Assembly: GCA_033763255.1 (NCBI GenBank)
Contig: JANRKX010000087.1
Location: 40,075-104,074 of the forward strand
DNA length: 64,000 bases
Origin: Acidobacteriota bacterium
GTDB lineage: Bacteria > Acidobacteriota > Blastocatellia > RBC074
Direction: 5' to 3'
In this document: in pieces, positions 1 through 61,490 of the stretch
Layout: every line of letters starts with the position of its first letter
How positions within the stretch are numbered: position 1 is the stretch's first letter
Notes under the pieces: generated by a model
What the model was told of the DNA's origin: nothing
What the model saw: the letters and a program-made list of their open reading frames with translations, nothing else
Databases searched by the model: none
Program-made: the position numbers and the translations under genes

Positions 1-330
1 CAGCGGTTTTTCGGCCAATCGTTGTATTACGCCCGGATCAATTCGATTTACGTCAACACGCGCTTCGGATTGACCTCGCGGCTGGATTTGCTGACGGCTT
101 ATTACTACATGATGGATCGTGGAGCGCCGTCGGTTTCACTCGCTGTAGGCGACCTACTCAACGCTTATCCGTTGAAACGGCACAACCCTGAATTTCGGTT
201 GGCTTATCGGTTCAACAACAACGTGACCGGCAATCTGAGCTACCGGCATTTCAGCTACAACGAAAAAGAATTTGCGGTGCAGGATTATCGTTCGAACATC
301 CTGACCAGCAGTTTACGCTTCACCTTCTAA
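1..330 (+). CDS. outer-membrane beta-barrel protein, C-terminal fragment (TonB-dependent receptor/porin-like); the 5' end lies outside the window
   Basis: The frame is open from base 1. The sequence shows an alternating amphipathic beta-strand pattern (YRFNNNVTGNLSYRHF...) and ends in the aromatic ...LRFTF typical of OM barrels. A terminator follows. Confidence 0.5.
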   Translation, partial: QRFFGQSLYYARINSIYVNTRFGLTSRLDLLTAYYYMMDRGAPSVSLAVGDLLNAYPLKRHNPEFRLAYRFNNNVTGNLSYRHFSYNEKEFAVQDYRSNILTSSLRFTF

Positions 331-347
331 CTTCCACCCTATCCACT

Positions 348-383
348 AAAAAGGCGCAGGCTTATTGCCTGCGCCTTTTTTTG
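348..383. terminator. bidirectional rho-independent terminator between two convergent genes
   Basis: The motif is aaaaaGGCGCAGGcttattgCCTGCGCCttttttt, with an A-tract on one side and a T-tract on the other. Confidence 0.6.
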
Positions 384-424
384 CTTCCCCAATGTTCAAG
401 ATGGGTCTGGATCAAACCCAAGTC

Positions 425-2062
425 TCAATAATTCATTCCGATGATTTCGCCTCGATCATCCACATCCAGCTTGGCGGCTTGCGGAACTTTGGGCAGTCCA
501 GGCATCAGCATCATCGAACCGGCAACCACGACGACAAATCCCGCTCCGGCGGATAAATGCGCCTGCGTAACAGTCATCGTCCAGCCACTCGGAGCGCCCA
601 ATACTTTCGGATTGTCGGACAACGACGAGGGCGTTTTGGCGATGCAAACGGGCAAGTCACCAAAACCCAATGTCGTGAACTTCCGCAGCTTCTTGCTCGC
701 TTCAGAATCGAAATACACCGCGCCTGCCCCGTAAATTTCTTTGGCGACACGTTCGACTTTTTCCTCCAATCCCAATTCCGGCGAATAAAGCGGCGTTACC
801 TGCTCTGCGTCACTGGCGTCAGCGGCAGCCATAACCTTCGCAGCCAAATCCATCGCGCCTTCGCCGCCTTTGTCGTAAACCTCCACGACGGCGCTTTCGA
901 CATTCGCAGAGCGGCAGAATTCCTGAATGGCGGCAACTTCTTCATCGGTGTCTGTGGTGAAGCGATTGATGGCAACAACAATCGGCACTTTGTATTTCCG
1001 CAAGTTGTTTAGATGAGTTTGCAGGTTGGCCAGACCGCGGTGCAGGTTATTCAGACTGCTATCGTTCGGGAAATCCGCCGAAACGCCGTGCGCGGCCAAG
1101 GCTCTGGCCGTGGCGATCAAGACAGCGGCGGCGGGTTTCAACCCGGATTTCGGCATCACCAGATCGAAGTATTTTTCCGCTCCCAGATCGGCTCCGAAAC
1201 CGGATTCGTTGATGACGTAATCGGCCAGCTTCGTGGCCATCTTTTGCGAAATCACGCTGCTGGTTCCGTAGGCGATATTGGCGAACGGGCCGGTGTGAAC
1301 AAAGGCCGGAGTTCCTTCGGTCGTCTGCGCCAGATTGGGCATGATGGCTTCGTTCAGCAAGACCATCAGCGCGCCGGTCACGTGCAAATCGCGGGCGCGA
1401 ATCATTTGGCCGTCCAGGTTATATCCCAGCAAAATGTCGTCCAGCTTGCGCCGTAAATCTTCGCGGGAATTGGCCAGGCCCAGGATCGCCATCACTTCCG
1501 AAGCGGCGGTGATGATGAAACCGGTTTCGCGCGGTACGCCGTTCGCCTTACCACCCAGGCCGACGATGATGTGCCGCAAAGCGCGGTCGTTCATATCCAT
1601 TGTTCGCGGCCAGAAAATGCTGTCCACATCGAAGCGCAGTTCGTTGCCGTGATGCAGATGCGAATCAATCGCCGCCGCCAGCAAATTGTGTGCGGTCGTA
1701 ATGGCGTGAAAGTCTCCGGTGAAATGCAGATTGATTCGTTCGGCTGGCAGCACCTGAGATTTGCCGCCGCCGGTTGCGCCGCCTTTCAGCCCAAACACAG
1801 GCCCCAGCGACGGTTCGCGCAAGGTAACAATCGGACGTTTGCCGTGGCGTTCGATGGCCTGAGCCAGCCCGATGGAAACAACGGTTTTGCCTTCGCCGTG
1901 CGAAGTCGGTGTCATCGCCGTGACCATAATGAATTTCGCCTGCTTGGGCGATTTCCATTCGGACAGCAATTCCAGTTTCAGTTTGGCCATGTGCTGGCCG
2001 TAATAAATCAGGTATTCGTTTGGTATGTTCAATTTGTCGGCGATGTGTTTGATGGGAAGCAT
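425..2062 (-). CDS. fhs: formate--tetrahydrofolate ligase
   Basis: The roughly 545-aa product aligns with FTHFS along its full length (PIKHIADKLNI..., TPTSHGEGKTVVSIGL, GGATGGG). The start is chosen at MLPIK, which has a gaagg RBS, rather than the upstream ATG. Confidence 0.9.
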   Translation of the reverse strand: MLPIKHIADKLNIPNEYLIYYGQHMAKLKLELLSEWKSPKQAKFIMVTAMTPTSHGEGKTVVSIGLAQAIERHGKRPIVTLREPSLGPVFGLKGGATGGGKSQVLPAERINLHFTGDFHAITTAHNLLAAAIDSHLHHGNELRFDVDSIFWPRTMDMNDRALRHIIVGLGGKANGVPRETGFIITAASEVMAILGLANSREDLRRKLDDILLGYNLDGQMIRARDLHVTGALMVLLNEAIMPNLAQTTEGTPAFVHTGPFANIAYGTSSVISQKMATKLADYVINESGFGADLGAEKYFDLVMPKSGLKPAAAVLIATARALAAHGVSADFPNDSSLNNLHRGLANLQTHLNNLRKYKVPIVVAINRFTTDTDEEVAAIQEFCRSANVESAVVEVYDKGGEGAMDLAAKVMAAADASDAEQVTPLYSPELGLEEKVERVAKEIYGAGAVYFDSEASKKLRKFTTLGFGDLPVCIAKTPSSLSDNPKVLGAPSGWTMTVTQAHLSAGAGFVVVVAGSMMLMPGLPKVPQAAKLDVDDRGEIIGMNY

Positions 2063-2079
2063 AATGATGAAACCTTCAA

Positions 2080-3258
2080 TCATGGGTTTGCAGATTGTCG
2101 TCTGCGGCTGACGATAAGCAGATCATCTTGTTGAGAATGTTTGCGGAATCCCAGCAGGTGGCAGATTTCCACGACAAACCAATGAGCGATTTGCGTGTTA
2201 ATCAACAACGCATCGGAGTTGTCCGGCAGCCGATGAATTCCGGGTAAATGCGGCAGCAAACGATCAACGTTCCATTTTCGTAACTGAGCGGAAACTTTCA
2301 GCCAGAATAGATTCACCTCGCGCACCAGAAAAAATCCGTCTTCACCCTGGCTCTGATACAAAGGCATAAACAGCAATCCGTCTTCTGGCGAAACGACGCT
2401 GCCTTGCCGGTCGCTGGCCAGCAATTGGCCTTTTGCCACGCGCGTGAAATTCGAAAAACCGGGTTGCATGACAAATTCATCCGTTTCGTGAACTCCATGC
2501 CGATGACGTAATTCCATCACACGAGGCACGTCGCCGACCGAGCGTTTCAAGTGCTGGCGCAGGTCGAAAAATTCATGGATGTAATACGGTTTTATGCAAC
2601 CAGCCGCCGCCAGCGTGATCCAGATGGCGGCTTCATGATTGAGCAGGGACGTTGGCGAGCGATGTTGTCCGGCTTCAAACCCTATGGCGGCGTGACCGAG
2701 TTCGTTGGCGTAATTAAGAATCGTGCCGTCAAGGTTTTCCTCAAGACCGAGGATGATCGGCACGCCAAGTTCCAATGCCAGACGGCGATTCGTCAGCGTA
2801 TCGCTGATGATGGCAAACGGCGAACCTTCGGAAGAAGTCGTGTGCAAATCAAGAAAGATGGCTTCACCTGTGTGATGTTCCAGCGCCGTTTCGATGATGT
2901 CCAGCAATTCGCGCTGCTCGGCGTCTTCGGCGGTGGCGGTTTGAGCCGGCAACAAGTCTTCTATTTCGCTTACCTGCTTCGGCGACCACATACGATTCAG
3001 GTCTCGGTGCTGATACCGGACTCCAGCGTTCAATGCCCTGACGTTTCCGGCCAACGCGATCAATTCGCCTCGAAATGTCGGGGAGGTTTCGCGCAATTTT
3101 TTCAAGACGATTTCCAGTGCCAACGCTCCGGCAGGCTCATTGCCGTGAATTCCGCCGATGCAAATCACCAATGGCCCCGGCTGTTTCCCGGAAAATCGGC
3201 CAAGTTCGCGGTGAAATTTCTTTTCGTGAATTGATTGCATAACGGCGCTTTTCAACAT
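2080..3258 (-). CDS. succinylglutamate desuccinylase/aspartoacylase (AstE/AspA) family zinc deacylase
   Basis: The [10 protein letters not shown] zinc-ligand motif and overall AstE_AspA-like layout are present. The start is taken at MLKSAVMQ, which has a ggagt RBS. The upstream 56 codons are probably not translated. Confidence 0.7.
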
Positions 3259-3433
3259 CGGGTTTGTACTCCATCCACAACGACGCTCACGATTCCTCCA
3301 ACATAAAAAACCTGCTTCTTTGCCGCGCCCGTCAGTAGATTGTGAGACTCGGCGATAACTTTTTCGCGCATACCGATTTATTACCAATCGGCGTGCCAAA
3401 TCGCCGTCAACCTGCACGGCGGCCATTCAATGC

Positions 3434-3449
3434 TGGCTTATCAATTGCT
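3434..3449 (+). promoter_or_regulatory. possible sigma54-type -24/-12 element (TGGCTT-N5-TTGCT) upstream of the cytochrome cluster
   Basis: The GG and GC dinucleotides are spaced exactly 12 nt apart. The -24 box deviates from TGGCAC. It sits about 125 bp upstream of the cytochrome ATG. Confidence 0.25.
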
Positions 3450-3574
3450 TCGGTGAAGGCGTAAGTCGGTATTTGCAGAACAAAAAAGCGGATATTTCCT
3501 CAATGGAACTCAAAATTACCCAAATCACTGCAAGTTTTCGCAATCTCTCAACATCTCAAGAAAGGGGGCAGAAC

Positions 3575-4387
3575 ATGTTCAAGAAGCTATCAATAGTTTT
3601 CTTCTTCGCATTGTTTGCGACTGCGGGAATTTCCGGGTGGGGAGTCAACGCGACCTCGTTTCGGCTGACGCAAAACGAATTCAAAGACAACAACTGCGTG
3701 GGTTGCCACGCCAAAGTAACCAGTCCATACAAACTGACCAGCCGATATGCCGAATGGCAAATTTCCACTCATCACGAAAAAGCTGTTGGCTGCGAGAAAT
3801 GTCATGGCGGAGACCCGGCAATCAAAGACGAAAAACGAGCGCATCAGGGAGTCGTTCCTCCTGAAAATCCGCAGAGCCGGTTGCATCTGAAAAACCTGCC
3901 TGAAACCTGCAGCACGTGTCATCAGGGCGTGGTCAGTTCGTTTACGGAAAGCACGCATTACCAAAAGCTGAAAGGCGCCGGAATCGGGCCGAGTTGTTCT
4001 ACCTGCCACGTTCACATGGGATCGCAGGTTTTGTACACGCCTGAAGAAACCGCTGCGATGTGTTCAACCTGCCACAATTCGCCGAACAAACTGATGCCTC
4101 TGCGACCGGAAATCCCGGAAAAGGCCAACGAAGTCATGCAATCCATTCGTCGCGCAAATACGATGGTGCTGTGGGCAGATCGGCTGTTAGATCAAGCCGG
4201 AGCCAAAAAACTGGACATCAACGACGAACAGAAAGAACAGAAAATTGCCAGAGCCGTTTTGGCCGAAGCAAAAGTCAGTTGGCACGCTTTCAATCTGGAA
4301 AGCGTTCGCAAAAAAGCGGACGACGCCCACGATATGAGCGCCAAAGTAAAAGACTCGCTGAGAGCAAAACTTTTCCCTCAACAATGA
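3575..4387 (+). CDS. pentaheme c-type cytochrome, exported
   Basis: There are five CxxCH motifs (CVGCH, CEKCH and three CSTCH). An N-terminal signal peptide (MFKKLSIVFFFALFATAG) is present. An RBS (aaagggggcagaac) lies before the ATG at 3575. Confidence 0.8.
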   Translation: MFKKLSIVFFFALFATAGISGWGVNATSFRLTQNEFKDNNCVGCHAKVTSPYKLTSRYAEWQISTHHEKAVGCEKCHGGDPAIKDEKRAHQGVVPPENPQSRLHLKNLPETCSTCHQGVVSSFTESTHYQKLKGAGIGPSCSTCHVHMGSQVLYTPEETAAMCSTCHNSPNKLMPLRPEIPEKANEVMQSIRRANTMVLWADRLLDQAGAKKLDINDEQKEQKIARAVLAEAKVSWHAFNLESVRKKADDAHDMSAKVKDSLRAKLFPQQ

Positions 4388-52401: not shown

Positions 52402-53898
52402 TTATTGCGGAGACAGCCGGACATCGGCAAAAAGTTCCAAAGCGTCGTTGCCGGTTGCCACGCGCAGATTCGACAGGGTGTAATTGAGTTTCTTCTTTTC
52501 GGTCGTATGAATGTTGCTGCCGTCGTCTATTTCCATCTTGCGCGGCAACAGAATTTCTCGATTAAGTAATGCTGGCAATTCGATTCTATTCAGCCATCGG
52601 TCAATTTGCACGGCTTCGGAGCGATTGACGCCAATCTCTTTTCCAGCCACGGTCAACGCGAACCGCAAATTGATCGGCAAAGTCGAACCTGGCACGGCGC
52701 GAAATATGGCTTTGCCGTTGTCGCTCAGGAACTCCAACGGCACAAGTTGATCTTTGACCGTGAAATTCGTTCGCGGCGACAAACCATAAGGCACGCCAAA
52801 TTCTTTGCCTTTGACGCGAGCATCCACCACGCCCTGCCCGCTCAGCCGAACGTTGATTTTGTTGTCGGCGATGGTTTCGACGTTCAGTTCGCTGATGTCT
52901 GCCTGACCTTCGCCACTTTCGACATCGGTGTAATTGGTGATCGAAATGCCCGCGTTGATTTCGTTGGTGCGAACTCTTCCCTGTTTCAACTTGAAGTTCA
53001 TGTCGGGATTTTGCTGCCCGGCGATGTTCGCCAACAGCGAGCCAAGCACATTGCGTCCAAGCCGCAATCGAACATCGCTGTCGGTTGTCAACAACGCTCC
53101 AAGTTGAAAGATTTCATTTTCCAGCGCGACAACGTCCTGTGGGTTTGAGGCAGATTCGGCAACCGGTTTCGCCGCCGAAACCATCGAGTTGATTTGCAGC
53201 GCCAACACCACACGTTTGTCCATCACCAACAATGAACTCAACGTCAATTTCAGCGGCGCTTTGTAAGCAGGCGTGGAAATTTCCACCGGCAGCGATTGGT
53301 TTTCGCCGCCGCTTGCGTTGTTGTCGCCGGAGCTTCCCACGGTGAACTGGCTGGCTGGAATTTCCATCGCTTCGTTCAATTCCAGAGGCAAATCCAGCGA
53401 AGGCAGTTCTTCGTTCCATTTGTCTGGCTTCAACCATTCGCCAAACATCGTTTTGACCAGTAATCCCGAAACGCCTCCGTTCAGCAGCTTCACTTCGGTG
53501 ACGCGAATCGGCATTTTCATCTGGCCGTCGCTGATTTGCCCGCTGGCAATTCTTCCGGTCAGTTGCAGATTGACCGATTTGTATTGAAGCCCAAGTTTGA
53601 CGATGGCCGCGCCCGTCGCCAGCCGGCTTTCAATCGAAGTCAGCTTGACGACGTTGCCGCTGGCCATTTTGATTTCCAAACCGATGAATTGCTGCGCGGC
53701 TTCGACAACCGCGCGTTCGCTGATGACGACCACCGCGTCGGCAGCGCGAAGCGAATCCGTCGCTTTCAACTCATCGCGCAATCGGCGAAGTTCGACGATT
53801 TGCTGCGGATCAGGTTTCTGCGCCAAAGCCGGGACGAATCCACAGCCAAGCGCCAGCAGCACTGCGGCCAAAAATCGTTTGAACATGGTGTTGCTCAT
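52402..53898 (-). CDS. secreted hypothetical protein (about 498 aa) upstream of the permease pair
   Basis: A signal peptide (FLAAVLLALGCGFVPALA) is present. No recognisable motifs were found. It is co-directional with the permeases. Confidence 0.55.
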   Translation of the reverse strand: MSNTMFKRFLAAVLLALGCGFVPALAQKPDPQQIVELRRLRDELKATDSLRAADAVVVISERAVVEAAQQFIGLEIKMASGNVVKLTSIESRLATGAAIVKLGLQYKSVNLQLTGRIASGQISDGQMKMPIRVTEVKLLNGGVSGLLVKTMFGEWLKPDKWNEELPSLDLPLELNEAMEIPASQFTVGSSGDNNASGGENQSLPVEISTPAYKAPLKLTLSSLLVMDKRVVLALQINSMVSAAKPVAESASNPQDVVALENEIFQLGALLTTDSDVRLRLGRNVLGSLLANIAGQQNPDMNFKLKQGRVRTNEINAGISITNYTDVESGEGQADISELNVETIADNKINVRLSGQGVVDARVKGKEFGVPYGLSPRTNFTVKDQLVPLEFLSDNGKAIFRAVPGSTLPINLRFALTVAGKEIGVNRSEAVQIDRWLNRIELPALLNREILLPRKMEIDDGSNIHTTEKKKLNYTLSNLRVATGNDALELFADVRLSPQ

Positions 53899-54034
53899 AA
53901 TGTTTGAACGGAAAGCGTGGTTCAGAAGAAGGCGCGCGGATTATACCCTCAACCACTACTCCGCCGCGAAGGGCGTGTGCTAAAGTTCGCGCGCTTTCCC
54001 TGCACAACAATTCCAGAAAGAGAATCACGACTGA

Positions 54035-55216
54035 ATGAGGCTTAGAGGGTGCATTGGCACAAACAACGATGCCGTAGATTTGCTGATCGAACGCGGCCAG
54101 ATTGCCGACATAGTTTACGCTGCCGGTTCGCCATGTGATTTTGGCGATGCGAACTTGCGGCTGTCGGCGGGTTTTGTGGATTTGCAGGTCAACGGTTACG
54201 GCGGAATGGATTTCAACGACTCTGCAACGACGACCGAACAAATTGCCGAAATTACGCGGCGATTGTGGCGAACCGGCGTGACAAAGTTTTGCCCAACCAT
54301 CATCACCGAATCCGCTGAACACATTTCGAAATGCCTGAGCAATCTGGTGCGCGCAACTGACGGTTCGCCGGAATTCCAGCGCGCTTTTGCCGGAATCCAT
54401 CTGGAAGGCCCGTTCATTTCCACCGAAGACGGCCCGCGCGGAGCGCACCCTCGCCAACACGCTTGCCCGCCGAATTGGGAACAGTTTCAGCGTTGGCAGG
54501 AAGCGGCAAACGGGCGAATAGTCATTACCACTTTGTCGCCCGAATGGCCGGAAGCGTGCAAATTCATCGAACGCGCTGCTGGCGCTGGCGTTGTCGTCGC
54601 CATCGGTCACACCGCGGCGACTCCGCGACAGATTGCCGACGCCGTTTCTGCCGGAGCGAAAATGTCCACGCATCTGGGCAACGGTTCGCACGCGAAAATT
54701 GATCGCCACGTGAATTACATCTGGGAACAACTGGCCAACGACGATTTGTGGGCAAGCTTCATCGTGGACGGACACCATTTGCCACCGTCGGTGGTCAAAT
54801 GTTTCGTGCGAAGCAAAGGCATCAATCGCAGCATTCTGGTGACAGACGCCATCGCCGCTGCCGGTTGTCCGCCTGGCAAGTACAAACTCGGCAACGTCGA
54901 AGTCGAAGTGCTGGAATCCGGGCGCGTTTGTTTGCCGGGCACGCCGTATCTGGCGGGTTCGGCGGTGGAAATGCACGATTCGATCGGCAAAGCTGTTTTG
55001 TATTCTGGCGTGACACTCGACGAAGCTCTGCAAATGGCGACGGCAAATCCGGCGGAAGTGATTGGCCAAACAGAAAACTTCGGACGAATTAAAAAAGGCG
55101 CAGCGGCAGATTTGGTGCTGTTCGATTGGGACGAAACGGCGGCCAAGCTGAACGTCGTCGCCACCATCGTCAACGGTGAAATCGTTTATCACTCATCTAC
55201 AGGCAAGGAGCATTAA
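54035..55216 (+). CDS. nagA: N-acetylglucosamine-6-phosphate deacetylase-like amidohydrolase
   Basis: The DLQVNGYGGMDFND NagA signature and the metal-dependent hydrolase fold are present. The start is uncertain. Confidence 0.75.
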   Translation: MRLRGCIGTNNDAVDLLIERGQIADIVYAAGSPCDFGDANLRLSAGFVDLQVNGYGGMDFNDSATTTEQIAEITRRLWRTGVTKFCPTIITESAEHISKCLSNLVRATDGSPEFQRAFAGIHLEGPFISTEDGPRGAHPRQHACPPNWEQFQRWQEAANGRIVITTLSPEWPEACKFIERAAGAGVVVAIGHTAATPRQIADAVSAGAKMSTHLGNGSHAKIDRHVNYIWEQLANDDLWASFIVDGHHLPPSVVKCFVRSKGINRSILVTDAIAAAGCPPGKYKLGNVEVEVLESGRVCLPGTPYLAGSAVEMHDSIGKAVLYSGVTLDEALQMATANPAEVIGQTENFGRIKKGAAADLVLFDWDETAAKLNVVATIVNGEIVYHSSTGKEH

Positions 55217-56315: not shown

Positions 56316-58139
56316 ATGAAGAGTTTCTTTTTTGAGTTTGCCCGAATCAAGACTGGCATTCTGTTGGCAATGGTTTTGCTGGCGGCGTGTTCCGGCGGCG
56401 GAAACGGTTTGAAACCCGTCGCCAGCAATGCAGAACAATTCATCGCCGACGCCGAAAAACGCTATCTGGAAGTTGCCATTAAAGAAGGTCAGGCCACTTG
56501 GGTGCAGGAAAATTTCATTACCCCAGACACCGACGCCATCGCCGCCGCCGCCAAAGAAGAAACGATCAAGGTCATCAAAGAATTGGCGGAACAGGCTCGA
56601 CAATTCGACGGACAAAATCTGTCGCCTGATGCTGCTCGCAAATTGAAGCTGCTGAAACTGGCATTGGCTCTGCCTGCTCCTGGCAATGACGAAGAACGCA
56701 AAGAATTGGCGGACATTTCGGTCAAGATGAATGGCGCTTATGGCGCAGGCAAATACTGTCCCGACGGCGACAGCGGAAAATGCCTGAGTTTGGGCGATCT
56801 GGAAAAGATTCTGGCTTCGAGCCGCAATCCGGAAGAATTGAAAAAAGCCTGGCTGGGCTGGCATCAAGTTTCGCGCAGTTATCGCAAGGATTACGCGCGC
56901 TTCGTCGAACTGGTCAACAAAGGCTCGAAAGAAATGGGCTTCAAAGACAACGGCGCAATGTGGCGGTCGAATTACGACATGGAACCGGACGCCTTCGCCG
57001 CCGAAATGGAACGCCTGTGGTTGCAGGTCAAACCGCTTTACGATTCGCTGCATACTTACGTCCGCGCCAGACTGCGGCAAAAATACCGCGACGCGGTTCC
57101 AGCCACTGGCCCGATTCCGGCGCATTTGCTGGGCAATATGTGGAGCCAGCAGTGGGGAAACATTTACGAACTGGTAAAACCGCCGACCAACGATCCGGGC
57201 TTTGACCTGACCAAAATTCTGCAAAGCCGCAAAACCGACGCTCGGCAAATGGTCAAATACGGCGAAGGCTTTTTCACCTCGCTTGGCTTTGAAGCTTTGC
57301 CGCAAACCTTTTGGGAACGCTCGCTGTTCACCAAACCGGCTGACCGCGATGTCGTCTGCCATGCCAGCGCCTCGGATTTGGACAACCAAAAAGACGTTCG
57401 CATCAAAATGTGCATCGTCATCAACGAAGAAGATTTCACCACCATTCACCATGAACTCGGCCACAACTATTACCAGATGGCTTACGCGCCGCAATCACCG
57501 CTTTATCAAAACAGCGCCAACGACGGTTTCCACGAAGCCATCGGCGACACGATTGCTCTGTCAGTAACGCCGGAATATCTGAAACAGTTGGGTTTCATCA
57601 ATGCCGTGCCGGACGAAAAAGCCGATTTGGGATTGTTGATGCGGCAGGCGCTCGACAAAGTCGCGTTCCTGCCGTTCGGTTATCTGGTGGATCAATGGCG
57701 TTGGAAAGTCTTTTCCGGCGAAACCGCTGCCGCCGATTACAACAAATCGTGGTGGGAACTGCGCGAAAAGTATCAGGGAGTTTCGGCTCCTGAAACGCGC
57801 AGCGAATCGGATTTCGACGCCGGAGCCAAATACCACGTCGCGGGCAACGTGCCTTATGCGCGTTACTTTCTGGCGCACATTCTGCAATTCCAGTTTCACC
57901 GCTCGCTGTGCCGCGAAGCCGGTTACAAAGGCGCGCTCAACCGCTGTTCGATTTACGGCAATAAACAGGTGGGCGAAAAGTTAAAAGCGATGTTGGCGAT
58001 GGGGCAAAGCAAACCTTGGCCGGAAGCGCTGAAAGCCATGACCGGCGAAGATAAAATGGACGCCACCGCGATCATTGATTATTTCGCGCCGCTGAAAACA
58101 TGGCTGGACGAACAGAACGCTGCCATGAGCGGAAAGTAA
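56316..58139 (+). CDS. peptidase family M2 (angiotensin-converting-enzyme-like dipeptidyl carboxypeptidase), lipoprotein
   Basis: The lipobox LLAAC is present. The zinc site is HHELGHNYYQ...HEAIGD. Length and collinearity match the ACE catalytic domain. Confidence 0.85.
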   Translation: MKSFFFEFARIKTGILLAMVLLAACSGGGNGLKPVASNAEQFIADAEKRYLEVAIKEGQATWVQENFITPDTDAIAAAAKEETIKVIKELAEQARQFDGQNLSPDAARKLKLLKLALALPAPGNDEERKELADISVKMNGAYGAGKYCPDGDSGKCLSLGDLEKILASSRNPEELKKAWLGWHQVSRSYRKDYARFVELVNKGSKEMGFKDNGAMWRSNYDMEPDAFAAEMERLWLQVKPLYDSLHTYVRARLRQKYRDAVPATGPIPAHLLGNMWSQQWGNIYELVKPPTNDPGFDLTKILQSRKTDARQMVKYGEGFFTSLGFEALPQTFWERSLFTKPADRDVVCHASASDLDNQKDVRIKMCIVINEEDFTTIHHELGHNYYQMAYAPQSPLYQNSANDGFHEAIGDTIALSVTPEYLKQLGFINAVPDEKADLGLLMRQALDKVAFLPFGYLVDQWRWKVFSGETAAADYNKSWWELREKYQGVSAPETRSESDFDAGAKYHVAGNVPYARYFLAHILQFQFHRSLCREAGYKGALNRCSIYGNKQVGEKLKAMLAMGQSKPWPEALKAMTGEDKMDATAIIDYFAPLKTWLDEQNAAMSGK

Positions 58140-58341
58140 GTTTCTCCACGAAGGAACGCGAAGATTCACGAAGCACATTAATGACTTCGTGTTTCTTCGT
58201 GTTCATAACCACAGTCAAAGCAATTGCGATCTGACCGAAGCATAAATGGTTGACATGTCAGCAATTCGCCTATTCGCTGTAATCTGCGACAGAAAAATTG
58301 AGTTATTGTGACAAAAACATCAAAAATTCTGTTTCAACCTC

Positions 58342-58371
58342 TTGACACTTTGAAGACTGTTGAACTATAAG
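58342..58371 (+). promoter_or_regulatory. sigma70-like -35/-10 (TTGACA-N18-TATAAG) in the AT-rich islet
   Basis: Found by motif reading only. Confidence 0.25.
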
Positions 58372-58485
58372 CCCTTTCGCCACCCCAAAAGTTATTTGAT
58401 AAGTGATTCCCGGCAAGGTTTGCCCGAAGGCAACACTTCTCAGGCAACACTTCTCAGTGTGCCTTCCAAAAATAGTGTTTTATCA

Positions 58486-58505
58486 GATAGGTGTTAGCAC
58501 CTATC
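58486..58505. promoter_or_regulatory. perfect palindrome GATAGGTG-ttag-CACCTATC, 23 bp upstream of the islet gene start (operator-like)
   Basis: Seen directly in the sequence. A tandem 14-bp direct repeat (GGCAACACTTCTCA x2, 58429-58456) lies just upstream. Confidence 0.4.
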
Positions 58506-58528
58506 TCGACAACAAGGGGAACTAAAAT

Positions 58529-59470
58529 ATGAAATATGACCACTCACAAACTAGGAACGTCAGGCTGTCTTGCGTTATTAGCGCGACAACAACTATGAAG
58601 CTTTTTACTTTGTATTTGAAAGGTAAAGAGAAACAACTCAGATGCATTCTTATGGCTATTAGCTTACTCGTAAGCCAAACTATTGCCTTAGCCGGAGTTA
58701 ATGCGCATGGAAACCAGTGGCCTGCTTTGAAAGGAACGGCAGCAACAAACGATAAACTGATTCAAGAATCGAAGGAATACTCTTTCGGCATTGACGCTGA
58801 TGGGCGCAGTTTTGTGAAGCGAAAAGGTGATGGCACAATAGCTACATTTCTTGACTTACAGCGGAATAAAGTCCAACTGGAAGTAAGAACTCTTGATGGC
58901 AGCAGAGGCATTGTCGGAATTGAAAGGCTCAGAAAAGGAGAAACGTTATTTCATATGACAGATGTGAGCGGTGAATCACTAACACTTCGTCAGTATAAGG
59001 TCGGTTTCGACCAGCATACGACCTTCGAAGTTGATAGTTTCTCAGTCACACTAACATCAAACGATCTAAAAAAACTTTCTACTCCACTTTGGAATGAAAG
59101 TAGTGGCCTCTTTCAACTTGGTGAGCGTCTTCGATTGAAACCTAGCCTCTTTCATTTTATTGAACGAGCCAATGCTCTTGATCCCAAGATTTTCCATCTT
59201 GCTCTTATGGCACAAGCAAGTGCGGGCGTGGCAGAAAATTTTGGGTATGCAGAACCTGGCAGTTGCACTACAGGTGTAATTAAGTGTATCGGTAATTTGC
59301 TACTTCACTTTATTGACGTTGTTGGTATTGTTGCTGGCTGTGCAGGCGCTCTGACAGGTATTGGAGCAGCAGTGTGCTATACAGCAATTGCCGCTCATCC
59401 TGTAACGGCTGCACTTGCTGCAGCCGAATGTGCAGATGCAGCTAGTGATTGTCAGAACCAAGCTAATTAA
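58529..59470 (+). CDS. hypothetical secreted protein with a C-terminal Cys-rich glycine-zipper hydrophobic module (bacteriocin/toxin-like), in a low-GC islet
   Basis: An aagggga RBS is present. An internal signal-like segment is MAISLLVSQTIALAGVNA. The C-terminus is GSCTTGVIKCIGN...GIVAGCAGALTGIGAAVCYTAIAA...AECADAASDC. The gene is about 43% GC, against about 60% in the flanks. Confidence 0.55.
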   Translation: MKYDHSQTRNVRLSCVISATTTMKLFTLYLKGKEKQLRCILMAISLLVSQTIALAGVNAHGNQWPALKGTAATNDKLIQESKEYSFGIDADGRSFVKRKGDGTIATFLDLQRNKVQLEVRTLDGSRGIVGIERLRKGETLFHMTDVSGESLTLRQYKVGFDQHTTFEVDSFSVTLTSNDLKKLSTPLWNESSGLFQLGERLRLKPSLFHFIERANALDPKIFHLALMAQASAGVAENFGYAEPGSCTTGVIKCIGNLLLHFIDVVGIVAGCAGALTGIGAAVCYTAIAAHPVTAALAAAECADAASDCQNQAN

Positions 59471-59483
59471 AAAGGGGGGTTTT

Positions 59484-59753
59484 ATGGACGGAAGATTGAT
59501 TTTACAGTTTGTTGCCATTGGGCTTGTGTTCTACCTTGTGTGCCACATCACCCTTTTGGCTGCTCGAAATAGCTTGAATAGCTCATTGCGGTTGGCTAGA
59601 CGCGTAGTGTTAGTTGCGTATCCACTTGCTTGCGCTTGTCTCGTGTACGCATCTGAAAATTTAACGCTACGTATTTACGCTGCTCTTCTAGCAATAGGCT
59701 CAATTTTTGTTGCAATTGCTATAAAGCGAAAAGTGCAAACCCAAACTGCATAA
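59484..59753 (+). CDS. small 3-TM membrane protein (putative immunity/partner protein)
   Basis: It lies 13 nt after the upstream stop and has a strong aaaagggggg RBS. The 89-aa product has three hydrophobic helices. GC is low. Confidence 0.5.
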   Translation: MDGRLILQFVAIGLVFYLVCHITLLAARNSLNSSLRLARRVVLVAYPLACACLVYASENLTLRIYAALLAIGSIFVAIAIKRKVQTQTA

Positions 59754-59779
59754 TGACTTTGGAAGGGCAATGGTAAAAC

Positions 59780-59832
59780 CAAAGATCAAACCTTTCGGGG
59801 CAGAAATTCACTACGAAAGGTTTGATCTTTTA
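59780..59832. terminator. strong hairpin (15-bp perfect stem) closing the islet, bidirectional
   Basis: The motif is AAAGATCAAACCTTT-cggggcagaaattcactacg-AAAGGTTTGATCTTT followed by taatctt. Confidence 0.55.
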
Positions 59833-59879
59833 ATCTTAGGTTAGTATTGAATTAGCAATTCGCCGGAAACCGCGAGAAC

Positions 59880-60200
59880 TCAGCCAAAAATCTGCCCCAG
59901 TTTCATCGCCACCATCGCATTGCCTTCGACTTTGATCTTGCCGGACATAACCGCCATCATCGGATTGAGTTCTCTGCGATACAGCAAATTGACCGTTTCA
60001 ATCGAAAGCCGCAACGTCACGTCAGAGTCGTGATCGTGGTGCGTCACGGAATTTGGCACGGATTTGCCATCCACAAACACGACGCTGCCGCAATCGAAGA
60101 CAAACTTGATCGTGGCGTCAATACCGGAATTTTCCCCCAGCTTGTGGCGAACTCCGGCGGCAAATTGGTCAACGGTGAAGTCTTTGTTTTCTTCGGACAC
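59880..60200 (-). CDS. SCP2 sterol-carrier-like domain protein
   Basis: The 106-aa product has the SCP-2 pattern (...ATIKFVF......V.....V.....HD.D....LS.E....L..G.L....A.MSGKIKVEGN...AMKL..IF). Confidence 0.75.
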   Translation of the reverse strand: MSEENKDFTVDQFAAGVRHKLGENSGIDATIKFVFDCGSVVFVDGKSVPNSVTHHDHDSDVTLRLSIETVNLLYRRELNPMMAVMSGKIKVEGNAMVAMKLGQIFG

Positions 60201-60221
60201 TCGGTTCTCCTGACTGAGTGA

Positions 60222-61490
60222 TTACTCAGGTTTGATTGGTTGTGGGTTGAGCTTCGTTTGGCGACCAGCTTGCAGCTTCGCAACTGCCGCTGCCGCTTGT
60301 TCGACGTTCTGCTTGCCGATCTGAATGCCAAACTCGATGGCAAACTTGCGCGATTCGTTGGGCTTCAACTTGGGTACACGACCGGCCTGGCGTTCGATGC
60401 TGCGATTGGCGGGAAAGCCCGTGCCCGGCTCCAAACCGGTGACGTAACCTTCTTCGACCGCCGTCGTATTTTTCCAGAGCGTGAAGTACGGCAGTTGATC
60501 CACTGAATAAGTCATCGAAACGGCTTTGTCGCCCGCCGCATTGTGCAGCATGACAGTTGTGCGATTCTGAGCATCAGCAAACGGGATGATGCCGTACACC
60601 TGTTCAACGAAGCCTTTGGTCGGGGCGACGTATTCGTTGTAACTCGACAAACTTTTCGCCGCGTGAACATTGAACGGGCGAACTTCTTTGGCGGCGGCAA
60701 GGAATCTGCTGCTGCCTTCCAGCAACGGCGTGCTGTAGTTAGCGTGATAAATCACCTGAAATTCCTGCTCGTACACGCTGAAGTTCGTCACTTCGTCTTC
60801 GATGCGAAACGTGTCTGCGCCCGGCTCGGTGGAAATTTCCGTCCACAGTTGCAGCTTGGGGCCGTAAAACATGCGTTCGTCCACACGACCACGAATGCGA
60901 ATGCGCGGCGTCGGCGCGCGATCAATCACGACTTCGACTTCCGAAGCCGGAATGTTTCCGATCTTGCCATGCAGCGTCAAATCCATTTCGGCTTCGTCGC
61001 CGGTGTTGTTGATGAATTTGTCTTTGCCCGGATGTCCAGCCCATTCCAACCCGCAGCGCACCATCCATTCGTTGAAGCCTTCCAGCCATCCCAGTCCGCC
61101 ACGACTTTGCAAATTGATGAATTGCGGATGAACGACTTCCTTGACCGGCGAATTCCAGCCCAGCCGTATGTCGCCCATTTTGACTTCCAGCACGCTCATG
61201 CCGCGCGTAGGGATGACGGTGAATTCCAGTTTGCCGTTGTTGACGACGATCACGTCAACGCCTTCCTGCTTACCGCCGTGCAGCGTCAGCTTTTTGACCG
61301 ACCACGGCGCTCTGGTTTTCAAATCAAGCTCGCGGCTGGTGATTTGCCAGGTTTCGGTGCAAATGTTTTGCGCAACGCTGGTCAGCGTCTTGCGAAAAGA
61401 GTTGTCTGGCATTGCTACTACCAAAGTTGAGAAAACGATGATTGCCAGCACAAAGCCAGCCATTCGACGAAAAGTCAGCGAGTTGTTCAT
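60222..61490 (-). CDS. hypothetical exported protein with signal anchor (possibly a galactose-mutarotase-like/DUF4432-type beta-sandwich)
   Basis: N-terminal hydrophobic anchor. The ORF is 422 aa. The family assignment is tentative. Confidence 0.55.

Follow-up and report, generated by a model that had tools for sequence, protein, structure and literature searches.

What is encoded by an islet of low guanine-plus-cytosine (GC) content that lies between two housekeeping genes of an Acidobacteriota genome, and what could its products do? The islet occupies positions 58140-59880 (1.74 kb) of the 64,000-nucleotide stretch analysed here (contig JANRKX010000087.1 of assembly GCA_033763255.1, class Blastocatellia), hereafter the window, and takes up the entire gap between two convergent genes. 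It holds two open reading frames (ORFs): ORF A, for a putative exported protein with six cysteines near its C-terminus, and ORF B, for a small protein with three predicted transmembrane (TM) segments. Judged from sequence evidence, we consider it probable (roughly 0.7) that the two form a toxin-immunity pair, in which ORF A would specify an exported toxin that attacks membranes and ORF B a membrane-resident immunity protein. The data directly support the anomalous composition of the islet, the conserved state of its two genes, the fact that these are linked and co-diverge, and the use of the six-cysteine module as the C-terminal domain of Rhs proteins and in orphan cassettes.

ORF A, ORF B and their relatives

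The initial annotation recognised no known family in either protein, and our scans of Pfam, NCBIfam, PADLOC and PHROGs, which returned no match for ORF A or ORF B, agree with it. Sequence searches of the PDB likewise produced nothing meaningful. When used as the query in a word-indexed search of 5.8 billion protein clusters, ORF A retrieved only itself, and profile versions of the same search added only P0004, P0006 and two fragments. An exhaustive phmmer search over 1.84 billion representative proteins recovered four distant relatives of ORF A (E 7.8e-11 to 9.7e-4), the alignment of which revealed six invariant cysteines and a His-Pro pair toward the C-terminus, together with an N-terminal motif, [YF]G[LI]DxDG..F....DGT. 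We also searched DNA directly with a degenerate pattern, a hand-built back-translation of C-x2-A-[IL]-x2-H-P-[VL]-x-[AG]-x2-[AV]-[AV]-x2-C-x2-A-x3-C. This pattern was found at seven genome loci and 13 metagenome loci, with about 0.03 chance matches estimated in the 596 Gb searched; in the window it matches at 59375-59452, and it was absent from 100 shuffled versions of the window. Nearly all of the 20 loci belong to Blastocatellia or to Pyrinomonadaceae, which are themselves part of Blastocatellia within the Acidobacteriota: the genome loci lie in metagenome-assembled genomes (MAGs) of Blastocatellia and Pyrinomonadaceae, in an unclassified MAG of the Acidobacteriota and in a bin that bears the label Ardenticatenia. 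No family member was detected in the viral contigs, phages and plasmids searched. The six-cysteine module, the N-terminal domain of ORF A and the 3-TM partner are absent from the curated libraries, where the partner family and the C-terminal extension of longer ORF A relatives also found no counterpart, and only about 20 distinct sequences occur in the data searched. In the searchable literature we found neither this family nor similar toxins of Acidobacteriota described. By these sequence comparisons, ORF A and ORF B belong to real but very rare, undescribed families.

ORF A encodes 313 amino acids when read from its first ATG, while the NCBI annotation of the same MAG (SF097_17840) begins the gene at Met23 (ATG 58595) and gives a product of 291 amino acids. 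The signal-like segment described in the initial annotation is present, reading CILMAISLLVSQTIALA with the cleavage site before the next G, and the six cysteines that it placed toward the C-terminus all fall within the last 63 residues. Every full-length homolog carries a comparable N-terminal hydrophobic segment of the Sec type, without twin arginines. Between the signal and the cysteines lies an N-domain specific to this family, of which residues ~60-154 (291-aa form) are beta-rich and contain the conserved motif [YF]G[LI]DxDG..F....DGT, and residues 155-215 are helical. AlphaFold2 modelled residues 61-160 with a predicted local distance difference test (pLDDT) score of 78-92 from an eight-sequence alignment; the single-sequence model of ORF A was poor (pLDDT 44.7). 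Structural comparison of the N-domain gave only weak, non-significant matches to small beta-barrels. No relatives of this domain beyond the family were detected in Pfam, among the 1.84 billion proteins or by structure matching, and within those proteins it was seen solely in company with the six-cysteine module. Pfam and NCBIfam scans found neither RHS repeats nor a recognised trafficking domain in ORF A, which has a Sec-type signal only; the window gene would therefore be a relative with the putative toxin domain and no Rhs gene proper.

ORF B begins 13 nucleotides past the ORF A stop and is preceded by AAAAAGGGGGG; the 89-aa three-helix product and the strong ribosome-binding site reported in the initial annotation both hold. 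Its membership in a family of partners was assessed with a profile built from eight partners at other loci, ORF B itself being excluded. ORF B scored 30.8 bits (E 1.2e-8) and the best of 1000 shuffled ORF B sequences 14.3 bits, a difference which indicates that ORF B is a true, though divergent, member of the partner family. Scanning the profile against all six-frame ORFs of all loci located the partner at 13 distinct loci, and the P0002 locus supplied a fourteenth. Wherever enough DNA was available (14/14 loci) the partner lies downstream of the module gene on the same strand, which answers the earlier question of whether the 3-TM gene is conserved beside homologs of the large gene. The partners share a cluster of lysines and arginines at the C-terminal end. 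Across 11 of them the K+R counts are 8 at the N-terminus, which is acidic, 34 in loop 1, 13 in loop 2 and 40 at the C-terminus, a distribution from which the positive-inside rule predicts an N-out, C-in topology. The divergence of partners and modules is strongly correlated (Mantel r 0.82), with none of 5000 permutations reaching this value.

At three of the 14 loci a third conserved gene separates the module gene from the partner (L009:5914-7611, L023:3565-5139 and, partially, L016:1093-1321). This intervening gene, found in one cassette subfamily, encodes 524-565 amino acids with an N-terminal hydrophobic segment and a mostly helical remainder as predicted from sequence, and its products at two loci share 34% identity (E 4e-76). 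It has no Pfam or NCBIfam match; an accessory role, a part in secretion or a second immunity function are conceivable.

The six-cysteine module and its genomic contexts

The conserved core of the family is a module of 59-65 residues for which two helices are predicted. In 18 of 20 distinct sequences the cysteines are spaced exactly C-x6-C-x17-C-x7-C-x17-C-x6-C (59 residues); the central loop is longer in the window (x11) and in its closest relative, P0002 (x13). All sequences share the six cysteines, a loop glycine, alanines three residues after C4 and three residues after C5, and the His-Pro pair at seven and eight residues from C4. A tyrosine seven residues after C2 is nearly invariant, being replaced by histidine in the window and P0002. 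Within each helix the cysteines take relative positions 0/7/25 or 0/18/25, which at 100 degrees per residue places them within 20 degrees of one another, and cysteines, histidine and Tyr/His together fall on one helical face within 40 degrees. For the pairs C3-C4, C2-C5 and C1-C6 the sum of residue numbers (i+j) is constant, as an antiparallel ladder requires. The 17-residue arms are hydrophobic, with mean Kyte-Doolittle values of 1.3-2.2 for the first and 0.65-2.2 for the second, and because the signal peptides are of the Sec type without twin arginines, the module cysteines would meet an oxidising periplasm. We infer that the module is a hydrophobic alpha-hairpin laddered by three disulfides.

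The initial annotation had noted a GxxxG/AxxxA glycine zipper together with the six cysteines. The run in question (GIVAGCAGALTGIGAAV) corresponds mostly to the enlarged central loop, the least conserved part of the module, and is missing from most family members. Since the loop is poorly conserved and has seven residues in 18 of 20 members, we rejected the glycine zipper as the family hallmark; the six-cysteine ladder with His-Pro defines the family instead. Nor is the module always C-terminal, as it is in ORF A, for members of 570-633 aa carry it internally, followed by a PPPP linker and an extension of ~270 aa. In these long members (L010:2700-3407; also L008, L012, L020 and P0003) the linker is succeeded by a Cys/Trp-rich segment and a region of ~200 aa with the motifs LVLDRNGNGTIDNGxELFG and LRLWQDxNHNGISExxEL, which look like calcium-binding sequences and have no Pfam match.

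The module was thus found in four contexts: behind a signal peptide and N-domain, as in the window; in the long forms with their extension; after RHS/YD repeats; and in stand-alone orphan ORFs. At L017, L018 and L019 it is the C-terminal domain of RHS/YD-repeat proteins. The L017 protein bears a signal and combines RHS_repeat (E 1.7e-32), DUF6531 and YD repeats with the module at its end, and the partner gene overlaps the 3' end of the RHS_repeat gene. Downstream stands a truncated module (VETVGLACLLHLIVHPVVAVIVVTTCADAYNRCFGG, then a stop; E 2.7e-11) beside a frameshifted partner, and from its sequence we read this remnant as a decayed orphan module-plus-partner pair. At L018 a 970-aa RHS protein, which matches Rhs_assc_core TIGR03696 at 38.3 bits (NCBIfam cut-off 32.5), ends in NDPLNGIDPLVVSHDAIDT and a stop and is followed by an IS630 element and then by an ORF that opens with the module. 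The element (2894-4123) encodes its transposase in two frames, has imperfect inverted repeats of 33 nt and a TA duplication, and sits precisely at the junction of the Rhs core and the module, within DPLGL after DPL. Removal of 1226 bp restores a single frame, NDPLNGIDPLGLINWKCVWEATKC, whose core stretch NDPLNGIDPLGLINWKC reads IDPLGL-INWK-C1; the module therefore begins four residues after the canonical DPLGL motif. The DPxGL motif marks the boundary between Rhs cores and their toxins.

The L017 and L007 proteins have YD repeats and no TIGR03696 match. At L007 a YD-repeat protein, itself Cys-rich in its C-terminal region, heads an array of two orphan C-terminal cassettes, each preceded by a TM protein, and it is the second of these cassettes that bears the module. 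All three C-terminal regions begin with a common segment, SWYQSLYDAGYNFGYSCTDPFGWG, which by analogy is the kind of handle that would let orphan cassettes recombine into the main gene. Judged from these gene layouts, the module elsewhere occupies the toxin position of Rhs polymorphic toxins. Together with the lack of any family match and the partner at 14/14 loci, this position supports the putative toxin/immunity assignment made in the initial annotation.

The same part of L007 (12-3278, Ardenticatenia-labelled MAG) contains two more Cys-rich hydrophobic C-terminal domains without a recognised family, in the C-terminal ~130 aa of ORF 12..1424 and in ORF 1873..2418. Each has its own TM protein behind it (1545..1970 and 2519..2914), and these are likely to be further undescribed membrane toxin/immunity pairs.

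Composition, boundaries and candidate control elements of the islet

The GC content is 0.41-0.47 across 58000-59999 (400-bp windows) and 0.43 in each of the two ORFs. The fall in GC and the foreign codon usage claimed in the initial annotation were both reproduced on calculation; its background of 55-65% was too high, as the remainder of the window has a GC content of 0.49-0.58 in 2-kb windows. At third codon positions the GC content (GC3) is 0.315-0.328 in ORF A and 0.378 in ORF B, versus 0.51-0.68 in 45 other long ORFs, a gap which shows that the codon deviation is real and large. Codon usage is a stronger signal of anomaly than the dip in GC. Milder low-GC stretches occur elsewhere in the window, at 61.4-62.0 kb (0.475-0.48) and over 3-7 kb (0.49-0.50).

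Sequence comparison makes it most likely that the islet is a horizontally acquired two-gene cassette. The homologous cassette at L002 has a GC content of 0.39-0.55 between flanks of 0.64-0.69, and that at L024 of 0.35-0.47 versus 0.51-0.57 at the contig ends. The GC3 of ORF A homologs lies under the mean of flanking ORFs at 8 of 11 loci. Some members reside on truly low-GC Blastocatellia contigs (e.g., L004, 41-47%), which are plausible donor-like backgrounds. In line with the initial annotation, which saw no integrase or tRNA next to the islet, a tRNA search of the window was negative, and none of the neighbour proteins scanned is an integrase. Exact-protein look-ups of SCP2 and P0001, aimed at an empty site in a sister genome, returned no record. 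An 11-bp direct repeat brackets the cassette (Table 1); we rejected it as proof of insertion, about 0.4 such exact 11-mers being expected by chance in 1.85 kb. A 74-aa ORF at L024:230-454, just ahead of the cassette most closely related to that of the window, has two CxxC pairs and weakly matches an excisionase-type helix-turn-helix (TIGR01764, E 4.6e-5, below the cut-off), which hints at a mobile element.

The islet is delimited by structures at both ends, and it carries candidate control elements (Table 1). The leader, palindrome and hairpins all folded much more stably than shuffled controls, and an Rfam scan of 57500-60500 gave no match. The hairpin after the M2 peptidase stop is probably the terminator of that gene and marks the left edge of the islet, and the 3' hairpin is likely to be a bidirectional terminator common to the cassette and the convergent SCP2 gene. 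A consensus promoter scan omitted the promoter-like element because it demands T at position 6 of the -10 hexamer. In the lowest-energy fold of the leader, the ribosome-binding site, AAGGGG, is base-paired with a UUCCC around 58407, so that expression may be controlled there; translational or operator control may operate in this leader, which matched no Rfam family. The short spacer and its Shine-Dalgarno run imply co-transcription and coupled translation of ORF A and ORF B. The repeat structures named in the initial annotation are present with corrections: the palindrome before the first start has 9-4-9 arms, not 8-4-8; the perfect 3' hairpin has arms of 17 nt, not 15; and the tandem 14-bp repeat is real and sits upstream of ORF A, contrary to the claim if that placed it at the 3' end.

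Table 1. Coordinates of the islet features and flanking genes (positions in the window; dG, folding free energy)
Feature	Position	Strand	Details
M2 peptidase gene (ACE-like)	56316..58139	+	Upstream neighbour; Pfam Peptidase_M2, E 3.7e-228
Hairpin after M2 peptidase stop	58154..58204	+	Inverted repeat I1; RNA fold dG -29.5 kcal/mol, z -5.9
11-bp direct repeat AGCAATTCGCC	58260..58270 and 59854-59864	+ (first copy)	Brackets the cassette
Promoter-like TTGACA-18 nt-TATAAG	58342..58371	+	Putative; read by eye
Structured leader upstream of ORF A	58400..58528	+	dG -41.2 kcal/mol, z -4.4; 0/200 shuffles fold as well
Tandem 14-bp repeat AGGCAACACTTCTC x2	58428-58455		Within leader, upstream of ORF A
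Palindrome 9-4-9, AGATAGGTG-TTAG-CACCTATCT	58485-58506		Within leader; as RNA dG -12.9 kcal/mol, z -3.6
ORF A, putative exported toxin	58529..59470	+	313 aa from ATG 58529
Predicted Sec-type signal peptide MKLFTLYLKGKEKQLRCILMAISLLVSQTIALA, cleavage before G	58595..58693	+	Read from sequence; no twin-arginine motif
Family-specific N-domain	58772..59239	+	From alignments; beta-rich part, then helical part
Six-Cys / His-Pro module	59264..59452	+	C-x6-C-x17-C-x11-C-x17-C-x6-C; conserved core of the family
Spacer between ORF A and ORF B	59471..59483	+	13 nt; G6 Shine-Dalgarno run 59474-59479
ORF B, putative immunity protein	59484..59753	+	89 aa; three hydrophobic segments; predicted 3-TM inner-membrane protein
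3' hairpin	59781..59830	.	Perfect 17-bp stem (59781-59797 / 59814-59830), 16-nt loop, T-rich on both sides; dG -25.3 kcal/mol, z -5.1
SCP2-domain gene	59880..60200	-	Downstream neighbour, convergent with the cassette

Other neighbours identified in the window encode an SDR, the ATP synthase gamma subunit and a DUF4432 protein. Two long ORFs (498 and 460 aa; 52402-55192, minus strand) upstream of the SDR gene had no Pfam match at E <= 0.01.

Possible mechanism, alternative readings and known systems

The scheme that we infer takes in disulfide pairing, membrane insertion, toxicity, neutralisation and a route across the outer membrane. Transcription would start from TTGACA-18-TATAAG and pass through the structured leader, and ORF A and ORF B would be translated from one mRNA. 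The ORF A product would be exported by Sec, its signal peptide cut after ALA and its hairpin oxidised in the periplasm, with the module folding into an antiparallel hydrophobic alpha-helical hairpin that is locked by C3-C4, C2-C5 and C1-C6 and places His-Pro and Tyr/His on the inter-helix face. The beta-rich N-domain might keep the hairpin soluble, or it might serve receptor binding or uptake into the target. The hairpin would then enter the cytoplasmic membrane of the target from the periplasmic side, and the membrane potential would collapse through a pore or ionophore or through a jammed membrane protein. In the inner membrane of the producer, the ORF B product would bind or block the hairpin within the membrane and thereby protect its host.

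Parts of this scheme are less secure than the pairing of toxin and immunity protein. That the toxin acts by the specific mechanism of a pore or ionophore is, on the sequence features, not quite an even bet. Slightly more speculative is the proposal that the module represents a hitherto unrecognised class of minimal membrane-permeabilising toxin domains, a 59-residue three-disulfide hairpin with buried His-Pro/Tyr that has two modes of delivery in Acidobacteriota and is neutralised by a private 3-TM family. If so, it would be deployed both as a Sec-exported stand-alone bacteriocin and as an Rhs payload, and it would parallel disulfide-laddered membrane-active peptides as a bacterial counterpart of independent origin.

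Several findings weigh against a toxin-immunity pair that acts on membranes. The window proteins scanned include no lysis protein, no secretion system and no domain recognisable as serving receptor binding or translocation, by which the ORF A product could cross the outer membrane. The second arm of the window module is Ala-rich and, with a Kyte-Doolittle value of 0.94, less hydrophobic than that of most relatives, and AlphaFold confidence for the module is only pLDDT 55-66 (eight-sequence alignment). The proposed disulfide pairing is deduced from spacing, and six cysteines with a histidine could in principle bind metal. An internal module, as in the 570-633 aa members, is atypical for a toxin tip. 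Among the 1.84 billion proteins searched the N-domain was seen only with this module, and the window-type architecture is therefore not itself polymorphic. Co-divergence, moreover, is expected for any co-inherited neighbouring pair.

We considered four other explanations. In the one that fares best, which we nonetheless regard as unlikely, the genes are still a toxin-immunity pair and no pore is formed: the hairpin would dock on a particular protein in the inner membrane of the target, for instance a transporter or part of the envelope-synthesis machinery, and block or hijack it, and the partner would protect by taking the same site or by catching the hairpin. His-Pro, which is invariant, and the Tyr/His between the helices resemble a site of specific interaction or function more than they suggest general disruption of membranes, a module of two helices is small for a stand-alone channel, and the tight co-divergence of the partner points to a specific protein-protein contact. 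However, no target can be named from sequence, and hydrophobic arms, with acidic residues in some subfamilies, would suit oligomeric ion channels equally well.

It is less probable still that the pair is no weapon, the hairpin being a membrane anchor or re-entrant element of exported proteins and the 3-TM protein its dedicated receptor or assembly factor. The layout of the long members, with the module between the N-domain and a Pro-rich linker plus Cys/Trp-rich, calcium-binding-like extension, would suit a hairpin anchor that displays two extracytoplasmic domains, and the pair is always co-encoded. Yet one would not expect to meet an anchor directly behind the DPxGL cleavage motif of an Rhs core, in orphan cassettes that share a recombination handle or in decayed module-plus-partner remnants, and the patchy distribution, sub-host GC content and strong divergence fit conflict systems.

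Very improbable is a third explanation, in which the six cysteines with His/Tyr form a metal or redox centre and the genes encode a small periplasmic or membrane pair for redox reactions or metal handling. The invariance of the six cysteines and the histidine, the near-invariance of Tyr/His and their common helical face agree with such a centre, as does a sub-threshold match to the 4-Cys TSCPD family (E 0.015, 15.7 bits versus a cut-off of 67.7). Sec export without twin arginines, however, delivers the protein unfolded into an oxidising compartment where paired cysteines normally form disulfides, the constant i+j spacing is what a disulfide ladder needs, and the Rhs and orphan-cassette contexts are without parallel among metalloproteins. 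That the ORFs are chance frames in AT-rich intergenic or decayed DNA, an idea suggested by their atypical composition and lack of a database family, is refuted by homologs of 20-50% identity with invariant residues and kept order and spacing at more than 20 loci in different genomes.

The toxin-immunity interpretation gives the islet a wider interest. Acidobacteriota are among the most abundant bacteria in soil. The module and its membrane partner constitute two undescribed families whose clear signatures can be used in annotation resources. A candidate membrane toxin of ~60 residues is compact and synthesisable, and its fold is directly testable. Delivery of the same payload by Sec export and by Rhs proteins would amount to a natural experiment. 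If the three-disulfide hairpin acts in the way proposed, it would represent a new structural route to membrane killing and a possible scaffold for narrow-spectrum antimicrobials.

Among known systems, the gene arrangement is closest to that of polymorphic toxins, which combine a C-terminal toxin domain with a downstream immunity gene and orphan cassettes (Zhang et al. 2012, PMC3482391; Poole et al. 2011, PMC3150448). As in Rhs systems, the module follows RHS/YD repeats (L017, L018, L019), the partner gene is immediately next to it, and orphan or decayed cassettes lie downstream (L007, L017). Unlike them, the window protein lacks RHS repeats; a Sec signal and a private N-domain are all that it has besides its module, which matches no Pfam Tox- or Ntox family. 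Rhs proteins also carry Tox-WTIP, a pore-forming toxin domain of two membrane helices (PMC3482391) that is, like our module, small, very hydrophobic and C-terminal; it is proteobacterial and is defined by RxxR and Wx[ST]IP motifs without a cysteine ladder, whereas the module has neither motif. Polymorphic ionophoric toxins that are neutralised by a cognate CdiI are also known from contact-dependent growth inhibition (CDI) systems (PMC11630599).

Immunity proteins of antibacterial pore-forming toxins usually reside in the cytoplasmic membrane, and pore-forming colicins insert a hydrophobic helical hairpin (PMC9558359). Colicins and pyocin S5 resemble the proposed system in being secreted bacteriocins of diderms that drive such a hairpin into the inner membrane and have a small multi-pass immunity protein encoded next to them (PMC9558359). 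The counterpart here has three hydrophobic segments and a K/R-rich loop 1 and C-terminus, as seen in 11 partners. The colicin domain, by contrast, is a ten-helix bundle of ~180 residues without disulfides, whereas the module has ~60 residues, two predicted helices and six cysteines. Pfam Colicin gave no match at E <= 1, we identified neither a Tol/Ton box nor a lysis gene nor an SOS-type context, and the islet has no third gene.

The hairpin itself invites comparison with smaller peptides. The peptides of gallocin A form alpha-hairpins held by disulfides, which they need for activity, and make bilayers permeable (PMC10100652), and glycocins have nested disulfides (PMC12457901). Both have, like the hairpin predicted here, an antiparallel helix-loop-helix in which cysteines face each other across the hairpin and form disulfides, and both have a dedicated small immunity protein, to which ORF B would correspond. 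They are, however, Gram-positive peptides of 40-60 aa with double-glycine or other leaders, ABC/C39 export and one to three disulfides, and the two gallocin A peptides act together, while here a predicted three-rung hairpin is part of a Sec-exported or Rhs protein of 290-630 aa. There is no bacteriocin Pfam match (class II, PF10439) and no adjacent transporter gene, ORF A having instead an N-domain of ~190 aa and a Sec signal. Glycine-zipper toxins that depolarise membranes (e.g., EsxX, PMC12744356; Tse4, PMC9558359) also have small, hydrophobic Gly/Ala-rich C-terminal regions and membrane immunity proteins; the GxxxG run of the window protein differs in lying in a variable loop. None of the Gly-zipper families in Pfam matched.

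Saposin-like proteins such as NK-lysin and amoebapores are short, helical and membrane-active, with six symmetric cysteines compatible with nested C1-C6, C2-C5 and C3-C4 pairs. Their cysteine spacing differs and they have four to five helices rather than two, which makes the resemblance a lead only, and Pfam SapB gave no match at E <= 1. On sequence criteria, the system lies outside the colicin pore-forming, glycine-zipper, saposin, class II bacteriocin and Tox-WTIP families. Its logic, that of a putative toxin with a membrane immunity protein that can be delivered by Rhs proteins, is familiar; what is new is the structural element on which it is built, in a phylum whose weaponry has been little explored.

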